In this document: piece by piece, positions 1,168 through 14,578 of the stretch
Numbering within the stretch: the stretch's first letter is position 1
Layout of the letters: each line of letters starts with the position of its first letter
Virus genome (UHGV): UHGV-0349585
From: a virus
Length of the DNA: 14,578 nt
Direction: 5' to 3' (one strand)
The notes under the pieces: generated by a model
What the model was told of the DNA's origin: nothing
The model's input: the letters and a program-made list of their open reading frames with translations, nothing else
The model's database searches: none
Translations under genes and position numbers: made by a program

Positions 1168-2544
1168 TCATACGTCCGCCCCTTGTGCATATCGTCTGCC
1201 ACGTGCAGCGGGTGCATTTGATGCTGTGCAAATCTGTCTGGCTTCATCCTGGTCACATGCAACAAAGTGTCCGTTGCAGAACCGCTGGTAAACCGTACCA
1301 AGCGAGCCAAAACGGTTTTTCGTCACGATGATTTCAGCAAATGGCGCGGCGCTACTGTTCTCGTCATATACAGCTTCCCGATAGAGCATGATGATTGAGT
1401 CTGCGTCCTGTTCAATGCTTCCTGAATCACGCAAATCTGCGTTTGTCGGGCGTTTGTTTGGTCGCTTCTCAACATCGCGTGAAAGCTGACTCAGGGAGAT
1501 AACAGGCGTTTTCAGGTCTTTCGCCATCGCCTTCAGGCTTCCGGAGATGTGAGCAATTGCGAGGTCGTTGCGATCTGCTTTCGGCTTCTCAATCAGGCCA
1601 AGATAATCCGCCATGATGAGTGACAGGTTGGGATTTTCCTGTTTGTGCCGCTCTGCGATTGAGCGAATTTCTTCTACCGATAACCGCGAGGCATCGACTA
1701 CCCATACATCCAAATCTGCAAGCTGACTCATGCCGTTAGCAACACGCGCCCAGCCTTCGTCATCCATCGATGCAGGATTTCGCAGTACGCTAACCGACAT
1801 CCTCCCGGCGTTGGCAATGCTTCGCTCTGCAATCTGCAATGCGCTCATTTCCATTGAGAAAATCAATACCCCGCGCCGGACGTCAGAACCAGGGATAACG
1901 CGGCTTGCAACGCCTTCGGCAATCTTCAGCGCCAGCTCGGTTTTCCCCATACCAGGACGAGCAGCGATTATCACAAGGTCTTCCGCGTTCATCCCTCCGG
2001 TGATAGCGTCAAGTTCTTCGATTCCGGTCTTCAGGGTATCTGACTCTTCTCCGTTCCTCAGACGCCTGTCAAGCGTGTCAGTGTAGTCAGTGATGATTTC
2101 CCCTAACCGTACAGGTTTAACCTCGTCACGGGGCTTTCTGATGGCTGAAAGACGCTTTACAAGTTCATCCATCGCCTGACTCGATGCGTCGATGGTTCCG
2201 CTCTGAATTGGTTCACGCATTTCATCCATGATTTCCAGCACCAGACGGCGGTGATAGTTATCCGCGACCATTCCGGCATATCCCTTCAGGTTTGCGGCAC
2301 TCGGGCAGTTTTTGCTGGTCATCAGGATTGACGTGAAATGCTCCTCTCCGCACGCCTCGGCAACCATCAGCGCGTCGATTAGGTTTCTGTTTCTCGCCTG
2401 CTTGCGGATAACCTCGAAGGCTTTCCGGTAGAGCGGAATTGAAAACGCTTCCGGCTCCAGCGTTGCCAGAACGTCACTGGCAGTTGGTGTTAATCCACCA
2501 ATCAGCAAGCCACCGATAACGCTCGCTTCGATATCCTGTTTCAT
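1168..2544 (-). CDS. Replicative DNA helicase, DnaB family (phage-encoded, P22 gene 12-like rather than lambda P)
   Basis: 458 aa; Walker A ARPGMGKT; DnaB-like N-terminal and RecA-like C-terminal layout; start overlaps O-like stop (ATGA at 2541-2544). Confidence 0.85.
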
Positions 2545-3371
2545 GCAATCCCCCTGTCTGCAAACTTCCCTTCCCGTACTCCCGTTAACGAATCTTCCCT
2601 CAGCAGGTAATCAAAATCTGCCGTCCAGCCCGTGTCGTTGTCTCCGAAGTAAAACGGCTTGGCCTGATGCACAAACGCCCTGACATACGCTCTGAAACCG
2701 TCCACGTTTGGCGTTTTCAGTTGCGGGATGATTTTCTTCAGGCGGCGTTTGCGTTTCTCGTTGACCGCAACAGCATGTGGAAGTCTGTCACCGACTTCGG
2801 TGTTGTAGGCGTTCAGGAAGGATTCGTAGTCGATTCGTTCTGCCTTGCGACGTTCAGGTTTAACCTGCCCATCGCCGCCCCCGTTAGGGGGTAAGGGGGT
2901 ATTTGTATTTATTGTCTTTTGTATATTGTCTTTTGTGTTTGACTGATTCGGTAAATTGCTTTTTACCGATTTGGTGAAGGTTTGTTTTACCGAATTGGTA
3001 AATGTTTTACCGAATCCGTTAACTTTCGTTTTCCACTCGGAAATGTTTGTATTCATACCAACTTGACGCCCCACCTGAATGAGAACTCCCATTCTGATAA
3101 GCTCGTTTTTGGCGGTAGAGCATTTGGTTGGTGCCATGCCAGTGAGTTCAGCGAACTGTTCGTTTCCGATCCAATCTATTTTTTTGTTGTAACCGTATGT
3201 CTTGCGCCACACAGCCATAACAATCAGTAACTGATGTAGAGTAAGTCCAGAAAGCATGGCGGCTTCTAACAGTGTGTTTGCAGTCCGAGTGTAGCCATCT
3301 TCGAGTTCTGCCACGCGATGCTCCACGACCTCCAGTTGAGGCCTGTAATCAGCTAACTTAACGACGCCCAT
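2541..3371 (-). CDS. Replication initiation protein, lambda O N-terminal-domain family, with iteron-encoded repeat segment
   Basis: 276 aa; [22 protein letters not shown] motif typical of phage O-like initiators; internal repeats [16 protein letters not shown] coincide with DNA iterons; AGGAG RBS before ATG at 3371. Confidence 0.8.
2898..3025. repeat. Origin of replication: iterons plus adjacent AT-rich tract inside the O-like gene
   Basis: TTTTACCGAAT core as three direct copies (about 2961, 2986, 3005) plus one inverted copy (2946-2955); AT-rich tract 2898-2940 with TGTCTTTTGT repeated. Confidence 0.65.
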
Positions 3372-7278: not shown

Positions 7279-7340
7279 GGAGCAATGTCGCTCGTAACTA
7301 AACAGGAGCCGACTTGTTCTGATTATTGGAAATCTTCTTT

Positions 7341-7367
7341 GCCCTCCGGTGTGAGGGCAATTTTTTT
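7341..7367 (+). terminator. Intrinsic terminator between the AT-rich ORF and the coiled-coil gene
   Basis: GCCCTC/GAGGGC stem with 6-nt loop followed by AATTTTTTT. Confidence 0.6.
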
Positions 7368-7379
7368 GACGGAGGATAT

Positions 7380-8348
7380 ATGAGTGAAGTAACAGATTTA
7401 GTTGTTATTGAAAAAGCAAATGCAATGACTGTATTTCAGTCTGCCGACCAGATTGAAGAAATCCTTCAAAAGGTTGAACGTGAAGTTATGTCCTTTGTGC
7501 CTGATATCACAACGGCAAAGGGCAGAAAGGAGATCGCTTCTCTGGCGTATAAAGTTGCGCAGACGAAAACATATCTCGATGGTCTTGGAAAAGACCTTGT
7601 TGCTGAACTGAAGGAAATTCCAAAGCTAATTGATGCCAACCGCAAGACAGTGCGCGATCGCCTTGATGAGCTGAAAGCCAAGGCACGCCAGCCTCTTACT
7701 GATTATGAAGAGGAACAGGCGCGAATTAAAGCTGAAGAAGAAGCTAAGGCAGCAGCTGAAGCTCTCGCAAAGCAAATTGAGTCTGACCATGAAATAGCGA
7801 TTTTGATGGATCGCGAATTTGACCGCCAAAGAGAAGAGGCAAGACTCAAAGCGGAGCAGGAAAAGCGAGAGCATGAAGAACGCTTAAAAAGAGAAGCTGA
7901 AGAGAAAGCCAGAGCTGAAGCCGAAGCAAAGGCAAAAGCCGAAATTGAAGCAGCAGCAAGGCGAGAAGCAGAAGCTAAGGCCGCAGCGGAACGTGCAGAG
8001 CGTGAACGCATTGAAGCCGAGCAACGAGCACAGCGCGAAGCAAAAGAGGCAGCAGAACGAGCTGAAAGAGAAAAGCAGGCAGCAATTGAAGCAGAACGCA
8101 GAAAAGCACAGGAGGAGGCTGAACGAATCCGGCGCGAGGCTGAAGCAAAAGAGCAAGCCAGAATAGCAGAAGAAAAAAGAATCAAGGACGAAGAAGAGCG
8201 TAGAGCAAAGGATAAAGCTCACCGAAAAGAAGTAAATAACAAAATACTTGCTGACCTTATCAAGGTTGGCGCATCAGAAGATGTTGCTAAAAATATCATA
8301 ACAGCCATCGTAAAAGGCGAAGTATTCGCAACAAAAATAACCTACTAA
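7380..8348 (+). CDS. Charged coiled-coil protein (about 322 aa) with Glu/Ala/Lys/Arg-rich low-complexity central region
   Basis: GGAGGA RBS then ATG at 7380 (MSEVTDL...); central 200 residues are EAKA/ERAE-type repeats; globular-looking ends; ORF-track frame starts 18 codons upstream without an RBS. Confidence 0.75.
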   Translation: MSEVTDLVVIEKANAMTVFQSADQIEEILQKVEREVMSFVPDITTAKGRKEIASLAYKVAQTKTYLDGLGKDLVAELKEIPKLIDANRKTVRDRLDELKAKARQPLTDYEEEQARIKAEEEAKAAAEALAKQIESDHEIAILMDREFDRQREEARLKAEQEKREHEERLKREAEEKARAEAEAKAKAEIEAAARREAEAKAAAERAERERIEAEQRAQREAKEAAERAEREKQAAIEAERRKAQEEAERIRREAEAKEQARIAEEKRIKDEEERRAKDKAHRKEVNNKILADLIKVGASEDVAKNIITAIVKGEVFATKITY

Positions 8349-9603: not shown

Positions 9604-10077
9604 ATGGCAAGCAGAGGCGTAAATAAGGTGATCATTATTGGTCGCCTTGGGCATGATCCAGAAATCAGATATTCACCATCAGGAACGGCATTTGCAAACC
9701 TTACAGTTGCTACGTCAGAACAATGGCGTGATAAGCAAACTGGAGAGCAAAAGGAGCAGACGGAGTGGCACCGCGTGGTAATGAGCGGGAAACTGGCAGA
9801 AATTGCCAGCGAATATCTGCGAAAAGGCTCTGAGGTTTATCTTGAAGGAAAATTGCGGACAAGAAAATGGCAGGATCAAAGCGGACAGGATAGGTTCACT
9901 ACCGAAGTCATCGTGGGCGTTGGTGGAACCATGCAAATGCTTGGTGGCAAGCAAGGAGGCAATGAACAGTCTTCACCTCAGCGAAATAATGGTCATCAAC
10001 AAAGACAGCAACCTCAGCAGCATGGAAATCACAGCGAACCACCTATGAACTTCGACGATTCGGATATTCCGTTCTAG
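9604..10077 (+). CDS. ssb: Single-stranded DNA-binding protein
   Basis: OB-fold N-terminus ([18 protein letters not shown]...), Gly/Gln-rich linker and acidic tail DDSDIPF. Confidence 0.9.
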
Positions 10078-10086
10078 GAGCTGAAT

Positions 10087-10566
10087 ATGAAAATCTGCTC
10101 AAGATGCCATCAACAGAAGGAAGAAAGGGACTTTCAAATCAGAAGAGCATCCAGAGATGGATTAACTGCCGCTTGCCGGGCTTGCCTGGCTGAATATGAC
10201 AAAGAGCGCGCGGGATTGCCACATCGAGTATCAGCAAGGAGAGAATATCAATCATCGGAACGCGGCAGAGAACGGTGTAACGCAGCCAAAAAGCGGTTCA
10301 TTCAGAGCAACCCATGGAAAAGAAAAGCCCACATCATCGTGGGTAATTTTTTGCGCGACGGTAAGCTAATCCGACCACCACAATGTGAGTGCTGCGGATC
10401 AGAATGTAAACCACAGGCGCACCACTGCGACTACAGCAAACCAACCGATGTGATGTGGCTCTGCAAGTCATGTCATGTCGAGTGGCACAAACATAACAAA
10501 CCTATCTACCCAGACGAGGAGCCAGTAACTCTCCCCTTCCCTCGTCACGCTATTCACGCAATTTAA
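10087..10566 (+). CDS. HNH-endonuclease-like zinc-binding protein (159 aa)
   Basis: Two Cys clusters (CSRCH...CRAC and CECCGSEC...CKSCH) with an HH...WH arrangement typical of HNH nucleases; GGAG RBS. Confidence 0.6.
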   Translation: MKICSRCHQQKEERDFQIRRASRDGLTAACRACLAEYDKERAGLPHRVSARREYQSSERGRERCNAAKKRFIQSNPWKRKAHIIVGNFLRDGKLIRPPQCECCGSECKPQAHHCDYSKPTDVMWLCKSCHVEWHKHNKPIYPDEEPVTLPFPRHAIHAI

Positions 10567-10574
10567 GGACTTAC

Positions 10575-11123
10575 ATGAATCACTTGATGGTTGACCTTGA
10601 AACAATGGGCAACGGGCCATACGCGCCAGTTATTTCTATTGGGTCGGTATTCTTTGACCCGAATACCGGAGAAACAGGAGAAGAGTTCTCGGTAAATATC
10701 TCGCTTGAATCATCAATGCGATATCGAGCGCGTCCTGACGCTTCAACGATTTTATGGTGGCTGGAACAGAGTGAAGAAGCCAGAAAATCGCTAACCAGCA
10801 ACACTCAGGAGCTTTCAACGGCTCTTTCATGGTTATCTGAATTCATCATAAAGAACGCTAACCACAAATTCGTTCAGGTTTGGGGGAATGGAGCATCATT
10901 TGACTGCGTTATTCTCCGAAACAGTTATTCGCTGACAGGGCAGCCAGTTCCGTGGCAGTGGTGGAATGACCGCGACGTAAGAACAATCGTCGAACTTGGG
11001 AAGGTAATAGGATTCGACCCTAAGCGAGATATGCCATTCAAAGGAACTCGCCACAACGCGCTTGATGATGCCATTCACCAAGCCAAATACGTTTCAGCGA
11101 TCTGGAAAAAGTTAGCTAAATAA
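10575..11123 (+). CDS. DEDDh-type 3'-5' exonuclease (DnaQ-like fold), 182 aa
   Basis: Exo I-like motif MVDLETMG near the N-terminus and Exo III-like motif H-x4-D (HNALDDAIH) near the C-terminus; AAGGA RBS. Confidence 0.7.
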   Translation: MNHLMVDLETMGNGPYAPVISIGSVFFDPNTGETGEEFSVNISLESSMRYRARPDASTILWWLEQSEEARKSLTSNTQELSTALSWLSEFIIKNANHKFVQVWGNGASFDCVILRNSYSLTGQPVPWQWWNDRDVRTIVELGKVIGFDPKRDMPFKGTRHNALDDAIHQAKYVSAIWKKLAK

Positions 11124-11139
11124 TCAACAGGAGAAAACC

Positions 11140-11436
11140 ATGCCAGCGCCTCTGTATGGTGCGGATGACCCGCGCCGCTGTTCCGGCAATTCCGTATCGG
11201 AGGTGCTGGAAAATATCAAGAATAATCTCGACGCGTTTCTTGCTCTGCCACCAGAAACAAAAGAAGAACGGAAGTGCCGACGCGATATACAACTCGCAGA
11301 AAAACAGGAAAAAGACCGAATAAACGAAACATCAATCCGACCATTCCGCAAAGCCACATATACCCACTTCCCTGAATATATCGACCCGCGCCTGCGTAAT
11401 TACCGCTCACGCTATGGCGCTATCAGTAATGACTGA
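11140..11436 (+). CDS. Hypothetical protein (98 aa)
   Basis: AGGAG RBS before ATG at 11140; ORF-track protein; no recognised motif. Confidence 0.55.
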   Translation: MPAPLYGADDPRRCSGNSVSEVLENIKNNLDAFLALPPETKEERKCRRDIQLAEKQEKDRINETSIRPFRKATYTHFPEYIDPRLRNYRSRYGAISND

Positions 11437-11446
11437 GGAATTTACC

Positions 11447-11737
11447 ATGAAAACAATGAAGCTAAACATCGACCTCGGAAAATACGTTATTACCGGAACC
11501 AAACACGATCTGATTCTTAGTGAAAGAGGAATTATCAAAGAAGGCGAGAATGCAGGGAAAGAAACACTAAGCCGTATCGGTTATTACAGCAAGTTTGAGC
11601 ATCTGGTTAAAGAATTATGCAACCGTGAAATCCTGTTATCTCAGGCGCAGACGCTACAGGATATTCAGCAGCATATCGAAACTTTAGGTATGTCACTTAG
11701 CATGGCTATTGACCAGTTCGTTGAGAGTAAATCATGA
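11447..11737 (+). CDS. Hypothetical protein (96 aa)
   Basis: GAGGA RBS before ATG at 11447 ([13 protein letters not shown]...); ORF-track frame begins upstream at 11414 without an RBS. Confidence 0.55.
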
Positions 11738-11901
11738 GAGGACTTGCATACAATCCCGGCATTCTTCCGGCAGAAATGATTATTCGCCAGCGCGTAAAGC
11801 CAATGCCATCGAGAGAGGAATTGCTTAAGAGAAAGAGTTTCGGTTCTGTTAATGACAACAAATATCTGAATGCGATGTGGCGTAAAGGAGGCAACCAGTG
11901 A
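11734..11901 (+). CDS. Small hypothetical protein (55 aa), translationally coupled
   Basis: ATGA overlap with the previous stop; my own translation [55 protein letters not shown]. Confidence 0.4.
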
Positions 11902-12164
11902 GTGAGTCAAAATGCCAAATTAATGGCAACAAGATAGAACCGTGCGCGGCGTTGGCACAATCCCTGGAGCATGACGCTGAATACACGACGCGAAAAGGTC
12001 TGCTGAAATACAAAATCTATAACCATGCATTAATTCATTCACAAGACCTGATCATGCTGCGGTCTGGTGAATTTTCTAAATCGCCTATTCGAGTTTCATT
12101 TTGCCCGTTCTGTGGTGAAAGTCTGAAAACGTGGGAAGCGGAGGCAACCAGTGAGCGAAATTAA
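11898..12164 (+). CDS. Hypothetical Cys-containing protein (88 aa), GTG start
   Basis: AGGAGG RBS 7 nt upstream of GTG at 11898 (GTGA overlap with the previous stop); C-terminal [10 protein letters not shown] zinc-ribbon-like motif. Confidence 0.5.
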
Positions 12165-12831
12165 TTACCAGGCACTGCGTGAGGCGGCAGTGAAAGCAAC
12201 GTGGGGAGACTGGGACTCATATAAACCACACCGTGGCGCACGTGGTTATGAGGTCCGACTAAGTAGTCAGGCCATTGCGCAACACGTTCTGAAAAACAAC
12301 GCTGAATTTATTGCTGCCTTTAATCCAAAGATTGCTTTGGCGCTACTGGATGAACGGGAAAGAAACCAGCAATACATCAAACGCCGCGACCAGGAGAACG
12401 AGGATATTGCACTAACGGTAGGGAGGCTGCGCGTTGAGCTTGAGGAAGTAAAACAACACGCTGAAGAATTATCCGAAACCAAGGCTGTTCGTAACCAATG
12501 GCGGCCAGATATTTGCCCAATAACCGGACGTGCATTTTTCATGTGGATTGAGCATCCAACATTGGGAAATGTGCCGACATATGGTGGCCCATTAGATAGT
12601 TACACCATTCCAACAAAGGACGGTGACGGTGAGTTTTCATGTGAGCGTTACGATCATGATTTTGGCGGTTGGGTAGAAAGCGAATGTCTTGGGTTATATC
12701 TGATTGATGATAGAGAACAATGCAGGGTCTACGAACTGGAGGAACGCGTTAAGGAACTGGATGCTCGGGAAATATCGCTCCCGGAACGTAGCAGCATGCT
12801 TCATCGAACAGATTTTCACGATGATTACTAA
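12151..12831 (+). CDS. Ead/Ea22-like family protein (226 aa), GTG start
   Basis: N-terminal YQALREAAVKATWGDWD and central coiled-coil are typical of Ea22-like proteins of lambdoid prophages; GGAGG RBS before GTG. Confidence 0.65.
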   Translation: MSEINYQALREAAVKATWGDWDSYKPHRGARGYEVRLSSQAIAQHVLKNNAEFIAAFNPKIALALLDERERNQQYIKRRDQENEDIALTVGRLRVELEEVKQHAEELSETKAVRNQWRPDICPITGRAFFMWIEHPTLGNVPTYGGPLDSYTIPTKDGDGEFSCERYDHDFGGWVESECLGLYLIDDREQCRVYELEERVKELDAREISLPERSSMLHRTDFHDDY

Positions 12832-12907
12832 ACGGTAATGGCATACAAAGTTTCTGAAGTCATCGCTGCAATCCGCGCCGCAGGCATTCGCATCAAAGGA
12901 GAGTGAT

Positions 12908-13504
12908 ATGAGCGCTATAACCAAAGAACGTATCGAATTATTCATTAAAAATCCGCTCGATAACGGACTTACCCGTGGCGAACAAATGGAACTTGCACGA
13001 ATTGCACTGGCATCGCTGGAAGCAGATCCAGTTGCTTATATTTTCAAACATCCGGCCGGGAAATTATTCTGGGCTTTAACGGATGAAAGCAATAAAGAGC
13101 AAGCGGACGTTATTCCTGTTTATGCCGCCCCTCCAGTGCCAGTAGTACCTGAAGAAAAACCAATGCCTAACCCTCTTAAAATGTACGCGGTCGATGCTGT
13201 TGCCGCTATTGCAGAGGTGAGAGGCTGGAATGCCTGCCGCGCCGCCATGCTTCAGGGTAAATCAGAACAACCACAAAACGCACAACAAAATATTCCGGAA
13301 AATTTTCCTGATGGCAACTATCCGGTAACTCCGGATGGTTGGGTTATGGTGCCCAAGGAGTTAACACCGGAAATGATGAGAGCCGTTCAGATTAGAAGTG
13401 AGCTTGGAGGGTATGCCACTTCCAATCTATCTGGTGCATACAATATGTTTTCTGAGTTCTGGAATGTTGCTGTCTCAGCTGCGCCTAAGGTGGATTATTT
13501 ATGA
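12908..13504 (+). CDS. Hypothetical protein (198 aa)
   Basis: AAGGAG RBS 7 nt upstream of ATG; Pro-rich central linker between two globular-looking halves. Confidence 0.6.
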   Translation: MSAITKERIELFIKNPLDNGLTRGEQMELARIALASLEADPVAYIFKHPAGKLFWALTDESNKEQADVIPVYAAPPVPVVPEEKPMPNPLKMYAVDAVAAIAEVRGWNACRAAMLQGKSEQPQNAQQNIPENFPDGNYPVTPDGWVMVPKELTPEMMRAVQIRSELGGYATSNLSGAYNMFSEFWNVAVSAAPKVDYL

Positions 13505-13803
13505 ATCTATATCGCTGCCCATTCTGTGGTTCCACTGTGCTTAACATCGGATACTCATTCAGTATCAGAGGGAAAATGCGCTATGTGTCATGCAAATGTG
13601 GTGCCAAAGGACCAGAAAAACGAACTAGATCTGAAGCGATTTCTTCATGGAATAGTCGAATGAAAGTATGGGTTTATGATCCAGAAACAATATTAAACGT
13701 TGAAGAGCGCAGGAGAACGGAAGTCTATATTCATAACCTTAATGAAGATGGATTTACACCAGTGCTTGTAAAGGCTACTCCGCAGGAGGTTAACCGTGGC
13801 TAA
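13501..13803 (+). CDS. Lar-family-like zinc-ribbon protein (100 aa), candidate restriction-alleviation factor
   Basis: N-terminal CPFCG...C.CG zinc ribbon followed by EAISSWNSR, resembling Lar-family proteins of Rac-like prophages; ATGA overlap with upstream gene. Confidence 0.55.
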   Translation: MNLYRCPFCGSTVLNIGYSFSIRGKMRYVSCKCGAKGPEKRTRSEAISSWNSRMKVWVYDPETILNVEERRRTEVYIHNLNEDGFTPVLVKATPQEVNRG

Positions 13804-14080
13804 CCTGCAACTTGCCGTTAAAGGTGAATACTTCGATGCCATGATTCGCGGAGAGAAAACGGAAGAGTATCGCCTGTGTAATGACTACTGGAATAAGCGA
13901 ATTCTGTTCCGCGAGTATGACCGCCTGATTATCACAAAGGGATATCCGAAGCGCGATGATTCCAGCCGCAGAATAGACGTCCCGTATGACGGATATGAAA
14001 TCAAGACAATCACGCATCCCCACTTCGGCGATAAACCGGTAAAGGTTTACGCGATAAAGGTAAATATCGGCAATGAATAA
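13796..14080 (+). CDS. ASCH/DUF3850-like small protein (94 aa), GTG start
   Basis: AGGAGG RBS 6 nt upstream of GTG; N-terminal ...AVKGEYFDAMIRGEKTEEYR... resembles the ASCH-like beta-barrel signature. Confidence 0.5.
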   Translation: MANLQLAVKGEYFDAMIRGEKTEEYRLCNDYWNKRILFREYDRLIITKGYPKRDDSSRRIDVPYDGYEIKTITHPHFGDKPVKVYAIKVNIGNE

Positions 14081-14084
14081 CAAT

Positions 14085-14110
14085 CCTCGCACTCGCGGGG
14101 ATTTCTTTTA
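14085..14110 (+). terminator. Possible intrinsic terminator after the ASCH-like gene
   Basis: CCTCGC/GCGGGG stem (one G-U pair) with 4-nt loop followed by ATTTCTTTTA. Confidence 0.4.
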
Positions 14111-14152
14111 TCTGAACTCGCTACGGCGAGTTTTGTTTTATGGAGATGATAA

Positions 14153-14320
14153 ATGCACTTCCGAGTCACAGGTGAATGGAATGGAGAGCCATTTGACAGG
14201 GTTATCGAAGCAGAGGACATCAACGACTGCTATAACCACTGGATGATATGGGCGCAGATAGCACATGCAGACATAACCAATATTCGAATTGAAGAACTGA
14301 AAGAACACAAAGCCGCCTGA
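14153..14320 (+). CDS. Small hypothetical protein (55 aa)
   Basis: GGAGA RBS 5 nt upstream of ATG; my own translation MHFRVTGEWNGEPFDRVIEAEDINDCYNHWMIWAQIAHADITNIRIEELKEHKAA; stop lies inside the next terminator. Confidence 0.4.
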   Translation: MHFRVTGEWNGEPFDRVIEAEDINDCYNHWMIWAQIAHADITNIRIEELKEHKAA

Positions 14321-14334
14321 TGGCGGTTTTTTAT
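14311..14334 (+). terminator. Intrinsic terminator upstream of the excisionase-like gene
   Basis: GCCGCC/GGCGGT stem with TGAT tetraloop followed by TTTTTTATT. Confidence 0.55.
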
Positions 14335-14377
14335 TGCCTGATTTGCAGGTTCGATTCCCTATTCGGAGATAGCACTC

Positions 14378-14578
14378 ATGCAACACGAACTACAGCCTGA
14401 TTCACTGGTTGATTTGAAATTCATCATGGCTGATACTGGCTTCGGTAAAACCTTCATCTATGACCGGATTAAGTCCGGAGACCAGCCTAAAGCCAAAGTT
14501 ATCCACGGGCGAGCAAGATGGTTATATCGTGACCATTGTGAATTCAAAAATAAGCTCTTAAGCCGCGCCAATGGGTAA
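14378..14578 (+). CDS. AlpA/excisionase-like helix-turn-helix protein (66 aa); likely Xis of the integration module
   Basis: ADTGFGKTFIYDRIKSGDQPKAKVIHGRARWLYRD matches the AlpA/Xis DNA-binding signature; sits at the distal end of the pL operon where xis-int lie in lambdoid phages. Confidence 0.6.
   Translation: MQHELQPDSLVDLKFIMADTGFGKTFIYDRIKSGDQPKAKVIHGRARWLYRDHCEFKNKLLSRANG

Follow-up and report, generated by a model that had tools for sequence, protein, structure and literature searches.

Short conserved boundary sequences, also called linkers, have been proposed as foci of homologous recombination in lambdoid phages (Susskind & Botstein 1978; Botstein 1980; Clark et al. 2001; as presented in PMC3029335 and cited in PMC3945230), and boundary sequences cannot be found at most mosaic joints (PMC3029335). 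In lambdoid mosaics, Rad52-like recombinases are documented to carry out relaxed homologous recombination (PMC3945230), and Ea22 genes are mosaic (PMC10834534). The present analysis concerns a 14,578-nt stretch of virus genome UHGV-0349585, referred to in full as the window, and a 16-mer, GGAGGCAACCAGTGAG, that occurs twice in it at consecutive gene junctions. The 16-mer is a junction of ribosome-binding site, start and stop that recurs between unrelated genes and coincides with mosaic breakpoints. It is probably a translational-coupling junction that also serves as a short-homology boundary for cassette exchange.

The 16-mer resembles the lambdoid boundary sequences in that it is short, is conserved between phages with unrelated adjoining modules, and lies where genes or modules meet in the early 'metabolic' part of the genome, at breakpoints; unrelated DNA on both sides, a gene-boundary position and coincident mosaic breakpoints were all found. 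It differs from them in acting at the scale of single small genes (cassettes of 241-1400 bp) within one module, not between modules, and in being a coding and translation-initiation element (tail, Shine-Dalgarno (SD) sequence and start), not an intergenic spacer. As in translationally coupled overlapping genes, the SD sequence lies in the upstream open reading frame (ORF) and the start overlaps the end of that ORF, by 4 nt at the first copy and 14 nt at the second. However, ordinary coupled junctions are specific to one gene pair, whereas the same 16-18-nt linker follows at least 13 unrelated genes and precedes at least 12. The boundary-sequence concept is thus already known, and the 16-mer is a particularly clean gene-scale case that doubles as a frame-tolerant translational adaptor.

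The start-associated sequences (SAS) and extended SAS (ESAS) of Cluster K mycobacteriophages share with the 16-mer an asymmetric conserved motif with an SD core, a position at the start codons of different gene families in the non-structural half of the genome, and the occasional presence of the upstream stop within the motif (PMC3203893). The SAS have a 13-bp consensus, GGGATAGGAGCCC, and ~10-20 copies per genome, 3-7 bp upstream of start codons (PMC3203893; Pope et al. 2011). The 16-mer is not a member of this class: its sequence and hosts are different, linker-like sites number one to three per locus, and it includes the start codon, which the SAS exclude. Nor are the SAS linked to cassette presence/absence or to mosaic breakpoints.

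Integron cassettes and phage morons are likewise small accessory genes inserted as discrete units at a fixed position, and integron cassettes also lack promoters and depend on upstream transcription. In contrast to both, the linker cassettes have no attC hairpin, IntI, promoter or terminator of their own, and the repeat that bounds them is a translation-initiation region. An attC site was rejected, as no inverted repeat at either copy involves the linker and the folding z-scores of the two copies are 0.07 and +1.46. A moron was rejected as well, since no promoter-like or terminator-like site lies on the + strand in 11100-12900 and the 88-aa cassette described below overlaps both neighbour genes. 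A structured RNA was also discarded; the folding values indicate neither unusual stability nor a structure occluding the linker, and an Rfam scan of the whole window returned no family. The HK620 genome paper of Clark, Inwood, Cloutier and Dhillon (2001) reportedly lists seven boundary sequences. The 16-mer string is absent from the searchable literature, which did not include that paper, and this linker and cassette set appear to be undescribed.

The two exact copies of the 16-mer are on the + strand, and no third match with up to two mismatches is present in the window. The expected number in the chance test was 0.02, and none of 200 dinucleotide-preserving shuffles of the window contained two or more matches. 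The repeat around the 16-mer reaches 19 nt with one mismatch. In both copies, in agreement with the sequence-only reading of this DNA, a GGAGG SD sequence is combined with a GTG start; the 6 nt between them are CAACCA, and a long ORF begins at each GTG. The junctions and the genes that they join are as follows.

11734-11901, + strand: DUF2737 gene, 55 aa; Pfam PF10930 (E=1.8e-29); phrog_1117
11887-11902, + strand: linker copy 1; GGAGG at 11887-11891, then CAACCA, GTG at 11898-11900
11898-12164, + strand: 88-aa cassette gene encoding MSESKC.., a small protein with four Cys; phrog_4030; no Pfam family
11903-12155, + strand: presence/absence unit of 253 bp, the cassette body plus one linker copy
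12140-12155, + strand: linker copy 2; GTG at 12151-12153 is the start of the Ea22-like gene
12151-12831, + strand: Ead/Ea22-like gene, 226 aa, MSEINYQ..; Pfam PF13935 (E=1.4e-27)

At copy 1 the stop codon of the DUF2737 gene, TGA (11899-11901), lies inside the 16-mer and overlaps the GTG in a 4-nt GTGA. The DUF2737 protein ends in ..RKGGNQ, and its last codons, GGA GGC AAC CAG TGA, make up most of the linker copy. The 88-aa ORF passes through copy 2 in a different frame, as GAG GCA ACC AGT GAG (EATSE), and terminates 7 nt beyond it at TAA 12162-12164. Its tail is thus ..EATSERN, and its overlap with the Ea22-like gene is 14 nt. The sequence-only reading had each copy overlap the upstream stop codon, which is correct for copy 1 but not for copy 2, where the stop is outside the 16-mer. 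At both copies the SD sequence is located inside the upstream ORF, 6 nt before the GTG. Both downstream proteins begin with MSE (MSESKC.. and MSEINYQ..), as had been stated, but the third residue is encoded outside the 16-mer, by GAG in one gene and GAA in the other. ATGA overlaps are present at the neighbouring junctions, 11734 and 13501.

The GTG starts at 11898 and 12151 are well supported by comparison, because ATG stands at the GTG position in variant homologous junctions (GGAGGCAACCAATGAG; ..CCAATGAGCAAG; ..TCCAATGAGCAAG) and the N-terminal residues of the 88-aa and Ea22-like proteins are conserved from codon 2 on. The NCBI annotation pipeline PGAP models the identical three overlapping genes in an E. 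coli chromosome, and the start of upf87.4 in the GenBank record of phage P7 is the homologous GTG. Gene callers must accept GTG starts with 4-14-nt overlaps at this locus. A third junction of the form GGAGG, 6 nt and GTG occurs in the same operon at 13781-13798 (GGAGGTTAACCGTG). It differs from the 16-mer at 6 of 16 positions and starts a 94-aa gene (13796-14080) that overlaps the Lar-like gene by 8 nt.

The proposal of the sequence-only reading had been made to depend on recurrence of the 16-mer at gene junctions of other phages. This recurrence was found: an exact-match scan located the 16-mer in at least 120 IMG/VR viral contigs, beside many unrelated genes. The matches listed, together with the window, provided a set of 132 occurrences from 121 sources, to which the counts of listed occurrences refer. 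Two copies are present in 11 sources among the matches listed, at spacings of 241, 253, 456, 584-589, 761 and 1054-1058 nt. Every listed occurrence joins the end of an upstream ORF to the start of a downstream GTG ORF, and the PGAP and GenBank gene models agree. The downstream gene is Ead/Ea22-like (MSEINYQ.. or MSKIDYQ..) in 103 of the 132 occurrences, and the non-Ea22 downstream genes form at least 12 unrelated clusters, all starting M-S. The upstream genes at the 16-mer belong to at least 13 unrelated families. Protein clustering of the flanks of the listed occurrences resulted in 15 upstream clusters, 19 downstream clusters and 31 combinations, and the neighbours that Pfam distinguishes are DUF2737, DUF4406, DUF7446, Lar, DUF4752, DUF1627, PAPS reductase, DUF7739 and Ead_Ea22.

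The upstream genes enter the linker in two reading frames. In 93 listed occurrences (frame 0) the upstream protein ends in ..(R)KGGNQ with its stop inside the linker, and the genes concerned encode mosaic EaE/Ea22-type proteins, DUF2737 proteins and a few others. In ~38 occurrences (frame 1) the protein continues through ..EATSE into RN, QD or similar residues and stops at an out-of-frame TAA or TGA within the first codons of the downstream gene. Frame 2, in which the upstream ORF would fuse to the downstream protein, is used by no family among the listed occurrences; an apparent frame-2 ORF upstream of the linker in locus L021 was rejected as an artefact of the longest-ORF rule. The chance of finding no frame-2 case among ~13 independent families is (2/3)^13 ~ 0.005 by our own rough estimate. 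The C-terminal tails ..KGGNQ and ..EATSE(RN/QD) are junction-encoded and should not be taken as functional motifs.

In its native form the linker joins the tail (..K GGNQ and stop) of an EaE-like/DUF2737-type gene to the GTG-AGC start of an Ead/Ea22-like gene, and it is not a free-standing element. In lambda, ea22 likewise begins with GTGAGC (GTGAGCGAAATTAAC) in a GTGA overlap, but the sequence before it is a different one, AGAGGTTCGAA. Thus, Ea22 genes natively start with GTGAGC, and GGAGGCAACCA belongs to the tails of a certain class of upstream genes. The native right half of the linker is the conserved 5' end of the Ea22-like gene, GTGAGC(G/A)A(A/G)ATT... The notion that the cassettes are devoid of their own N-termini was not upheld. 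The 88-aa family starts MS[EN]SKC in 16 of 16 aligned members, its Citrobacter homologue has an ATG start at the same codon behind an unrelated junction, and the Pfam DUF7446 model covers the protein of the 241-bp cassette from residue 7. More visibly, the linker supplies the C-terminal tail and the stop of the upstream gene.

The edges of similarity around the linker are sharp. Homology extends for no more than 3 nt on both sides of the 16-mer in 1380 of 8646 pairs of listed occurrences, the base after it is C or T in 131 of 132, and the preceding three bases are AAA in 112 of 132. Left borders in at least 8 unrelated frame-1 families lie 0-5 nt from GGAGG. Five unrelated frame-1 contexts have CA directly before the 16-mer, encoding ..Q-EATSE, and this common 18-nt allele is not expected to have arisen by independent illegitimate joins. 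A scan of species-representative genomes with the 19-mer AAAGGAGGCAACCAGTGAG produced 8 matches, of which only those in E. coli and an Escherichia sp. are credible; the other six are in unrelated metagenome-assembled genomes, about the number expected by chance on our own estimate. The exact linker allele is essentially limited to Escherichia and its phages.

Breakpoints were mapped by BLAST comparison of window positions 10001-14578 with all collected loci. The starts of the high-scoring segment pairs (HSPs, n=972) are commonest in the bin at 11730, the start of the DUF2737 gene, with 128, and next commonest at exactly 12140, the first base of linker copy 2, with 114. The commonest cluster of HSP ends, 116 of 941, is at 11901-11909, at the end of linker copy 1. 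Reference phages have the same edges, at positions 483-505 and 741 of the query 11400-12900, as do complete E. coli genomes, where part of 11734-12300 is present in 1852 of 5426 and at least 80% of it in only 3. At 35 loci, the HSPs to the left and to the right have 16-20 nt of the subject sequence in common, which corresponds to one linker there against linker, cassette and linker in the window. These single-linker alleles have the order DUF2737 gene, linker, Ea22-like gene, and the presence/absence of the 253 bp is exact. Relative to them, the 88-aa gene is a cassette.

Intervals bounded by linkers with up to two mismatches number 46 distinct ones in nine families. The 241-bp DUF7446 cassette is linker-bounded in 17 contexts with at least three different upstream genes. 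Other bounded families include the 88-aa cassette (253/256 bp), Ea22-like paralogues, PAPS reductase and a 161-aa MTGHAA.. protein of unknown function with no Pfam match. Distant homologues of the 88-aa gene have linker variants with one or two mismatches or, in Citrobacter, no linker. The tails of this family vary with the junction (EATSERN, EATSEQD, ENRNE, ESKK and ESQ). An AlphaFold2 model of the 88-aa protein from a 16-sequence alignment had a mean pLDDT of 44 and a pTM of 0.27, too poor for a fold search.

The 88-aa cassette of the window is 99.2-99.6% identical to that of P7-type loci (L203 (P7) and H38-H44), while both 200-nt flanks are at ~61%, the level taken as the unrelated baseline. 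Among reference phages, its identity is 95-99% in the P1-like phage-plasmids P7, SJ46, JL22 and D6 but only ~84-85% in lambdoid phages. Because the window allele is so much closer to those of the phage-plasmids, a recent exchange of the cassette across the lambdoid/P1 divide is suggested. De Paepe et al. (2014) reported that recent exchanges between these groups were absent from their data set. The boundaries of the cassette in P7 are GGGGACAACCAGTGAG and GGAGGCAACCAGTGAA. Next to it lies a further cassette, upf87.6, whose junction with the Ea22-like gene is unrelated and falls inside the first codons, away from the linker.

The linker marks the exchange of small promoterless gene cassettes, because the same sequence is kept in phages with unrelated neighbour genes, and very probably mediates it too. 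It would give the downstream gene a ribosome-binding site, a start codon and the Ser2 codon, and would end an incoming upstream ORF in two of the three frames, through its internal TGA in frame 0 and through a TAA or TGA several codons further on in frame 1. Each downstream gene is likely to be coupled in translation to the upstream gene. The 16-18 nt of identity, which CAGCTTCGCAAA and the conserved 5' end of Ea22 often bring to 22-28 nt, may be used as a short-homology recombination site. Candidate agents of the exchange are the phage Rad52-like protein together with SSB, RecA, or template switching; the Rad52-like annealing protein and SSB are encoded upstream of the linkers in the same operon. 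The recombination linker of a coupled cassette array that had been proposed from the letters of the window fits the comparative data and the breakpoints at the linker edges, with recombination and coupling being what we infer from them.

Several results weigh against a role of the linker in cassette exchange. About 30 bp is quoted as the minimum for Red-beta recombination (PMC3945230), so that exchange at a bare linker of 16-18 nt would be inefficient. Most loci were collected by exact match to the 16-mer, which biases the flank statistics toward sharp edges, and a few singleton contexts, such as that of locus L013, may be chance matches. In two less biased samples, anchored on neighbour proteins (DUF2737 and the Ea22 N-terminal domain) and not on the 16-mer, the linker is not unusually conserved. 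The 68 DUF2737-anchored junctions comprise 45 exact 16-mers and otherwise variants of 1-2 nt, and the 74 Ea22-anchored gene starts comprise 22 exact 16-mers, 19 that differ at 1-4 positions and 33 with unrelated upstream junctions. Conservation of the linker is 0.976, compared with 0.94-0.985 at the adjoining DUF2737 codon positions, and an exceptional purifying selection on the linker was dropped, as its conservation equals that of the adjoining coding DNA. Finally, cassettes of DUF4406, DUF4752 and DUF1627 genes have a linker at the 3' end only and unrelated 5' junctions, which fits a linker that travels with the downstream Ea22-like gene as its translation-initiation region.

In the DUF2737-anchored sample, the gene after DUF2737 is Ea22-like in 38 of the 68 junctions, the DUF7446 cassette in 13, the gene of the MTGHA.. 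161-aa protein in 7 and a DUF7739 gene in 6; four other families, the 88-aa gene (once) among them, occur once or twice each. Conservation collapses right after position 16, to 0.44-0.83 in the following 6 nt. Phage HK620 has a one-mismatch variant, GGAGGCAGCCAGTGAG, at the junction of hkaH and the Ea22-like hkaG, and P22 eaD and eaF have a diverged relative of the linker, GGAGACAGCCCAATGAGC.

The main rival to the exchange-boundary reading assigns the linker a passive part: illegitimate joins arise anywhere, selection keeps the intact genes, and the 16-mer is inherited with the Ea22-like and EaE/DUF2737 genes. Homology at the linker would then have no causal role, although microhomology between SD sequences and start codons is allowed. 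The predominance of Ea22-like genes downstream (103 of 132 listed occurrences) agrees with this account, as do the several cassettes with a linker only on the side facing the Ea22-like gene, the ~6 unrelated junction types behind which Ea22-like genes sit, including the DUF7739 gene tail and the lambda type, and the joining of P7 upf87.6 off the linker. The linker is also no better conserved than neighbouring coding DNA, 16 nt is short for annealing proteins, and joints that lack boundary sequences are ordinarily explained by Hendrix-type illegitimate recombination (PMC3029335). However, passive inheritance does not account for the exact GTGAG(C/T) start that at least 12 non-Ea22 genes have after an identical 11-nt SD sequence and spacer, or for the left borders of at least 8 unrelated frame-1 families lying 0-5 nt from GGAGG, with CA shared by five of these families. 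Equally unexplained are 241-bp and 253-bp cassettes that are linker-bounded on both sides in different neighbourhoods, and the exact single-linker empty sites. We consider this account possible but doubtful.

The remaining explanations are much weaker. An SAS-like element for sequence-specific translational control, in which a protein or RNA of phage or host recognises the junction and controls the initiation of a set of genes, unrelated genes having acquired it by selection, would account for an asymmetric motif with an SD core at the start codons of unrelated families, as for SAS (PMC3203893), and for a spacer CAACCA that is mostly kept even where the upstream frame differs. It is very improbable, given one to three copies per locus against the ~10-20 SAS per genome, free variation at spacer positions 8-9 (CAAGCA, CAGCCA, CAAACA), the lack of a partner structure or Rfam family, and cassette presence/absence and breakpoint data that require recombination anyway. 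Still less credence is due to a dedicated site-specific recombinase site, an integron-like attC or an att core at which cassettes insert with duplication of the target. Cassettes do lie between direct repeats at a fixed locus close to xis/int, but neither copy has an inverted-repeat or hairpin architecture, no integron-type integrase was seen, point-mutated linkers keep the arrangement, and many cassettes have a one-sided linker. A chance duplication or local tandem-duplication artefact, for which nothing speaks beyond the shortness of the repeat, has a practically negligible probability; it is refuted by the shuffles and by the presence of the 16-mer in hundreds of independent phage contexts.

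The exchange-boundary reading can be extended to a broader one, which is unlikely as a whole. In the lambdoid, P22-like and P1-like temperate phages of enterobacteria, the ea region would then be a recombinase-serviced cassette array with an integron-like role and a linker selected for three jobs. The 16-18-nt adaptor would be the equivalent of attC and a landing pad for the single-strand-annealing recombinase that the phage encodes upstream; it would restart translation of the incoming promoterless gene, and it would terminate the upstream ORF in the two non-fusing frames. If true, such an array would allow rapid, frame-tolerant swapping of accessory genes across phage groups, the lambdoid/P1 divide included, and the swapped cargo would possibly be anti-defence genes (Lar-like, PAPS reductase, methyltransferase-like and DUF4406). 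The locus is a compact and abundant test case, with a defined 16-18-nt junction, an empty-site allele, at least 8 alternative cassettes at one site, and near-identical cassettes in unrelated neighbourhoods, including the 99% identity between a lambdoid prophage and P1-like phage-plasmids. Although unsurprising to specialists, it provides a good experimental handle on the old question of mosaic phage genomes.

The window is the early region, early-left (pL) operon included, of a lambdoid/P22-like prophage. The - strand carries ninB and the genes of a DnaB-like helicase, an O-type replication protein, cII and cro. The + strand, in the pL direction, carries cI, N, the Rad52-like annealing protein, SSB, an HNH-type endonuclease, a 3'-5' exonuclease, abc2 (anti-RecBCD) and DUF5405, and continues with the DUF2737 gene, the 88-aa gene, the Ead/Ea22-like gene, a 198-aa gene, the Lar-like gene and others. 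The family assignments place both linker copies within the variable ea (exo-xis) accessory region, as had been thought. The HNH-type endonuclease was called from a PHROGs match with no Pfam family, and a C-terminal ORF near 14378, for which Pfam gave no family, is excisionase-like by eye. The Ead_Ea22 match of the Ea22-like protein passes the Pfam gathering score, with 97.4 bits over residues 2-110 against a cutoff of 27.

PHROG families with piecewise matches number 16 for the Ea22-like protein and 11 for the 198-aa protein (12908-13504). BLAST breakpoints also cluster inside the Ea22-like gene, at ~12290-12330 and 12440-12450. There is intragenic domain shuffling in both genes, 12151-12831 and 12908-13504, consistent with the mosaic Ea22 architecture (PMC10834534). 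In locus L012, a homologue of the 12908 gene follows the 16-mer immediately and starts with GTG. In the window, an orphan 22-codon ORF, MAYKVSEVIAAIRAAGIRIKGE, is present in the 76-nt gap between the Ea22-like and 12908 genes (region 12838-12910). We take it to resemble the C-terminal tail of Ea22 of the lambda type. The ORF is followed at 12893-12910 by another recurrent junction, AAAGGAGAGTGATATG. When 12-mers were screened for unrelated sequence on either side, this junction and the 16-mer ranked above all others, and a small family of such linkers may exist. IMG/VR loci L015, L043, L068, L077 and L106 have a linker, then a truncated Ea22 stub of 16 codons, MSEINYQELRQVKEKA, and then other DNA. 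Such stubs are orphan starts, the counterpart of the orphan tail in the window.

Three further features of the window are distant from the linkers. Four tandem iteron-like repeats of ~20 nt (TGTTTTACCGAATTGGTAAA) at 2936-3022, inside the O-type replication gene (2541-3371, - strand), presumably constitute the phage replication origin. Degenerate 27-37-nt repeats, GAAGC(A/T)GAAGC.., extend over 7734-8178 within a 340-aa ORF (7326-8348) that has no Pfam match and probably encodes a Glu-, Ala- and Lys-rich protein of low complexity or with a coiled coil. The longest ORF model of DUF5405, 11414-11737, overlaps abc2 (11140-11436) by 23 nt. Its true start is probably the ATG at 11447 (MKTMKL..), because the PHROG and Pfam matches begin only at residues 12 and 23 and this ATG follows GAGGAATTTACC, so that a 10-nt gap would separate the gene from abc2.

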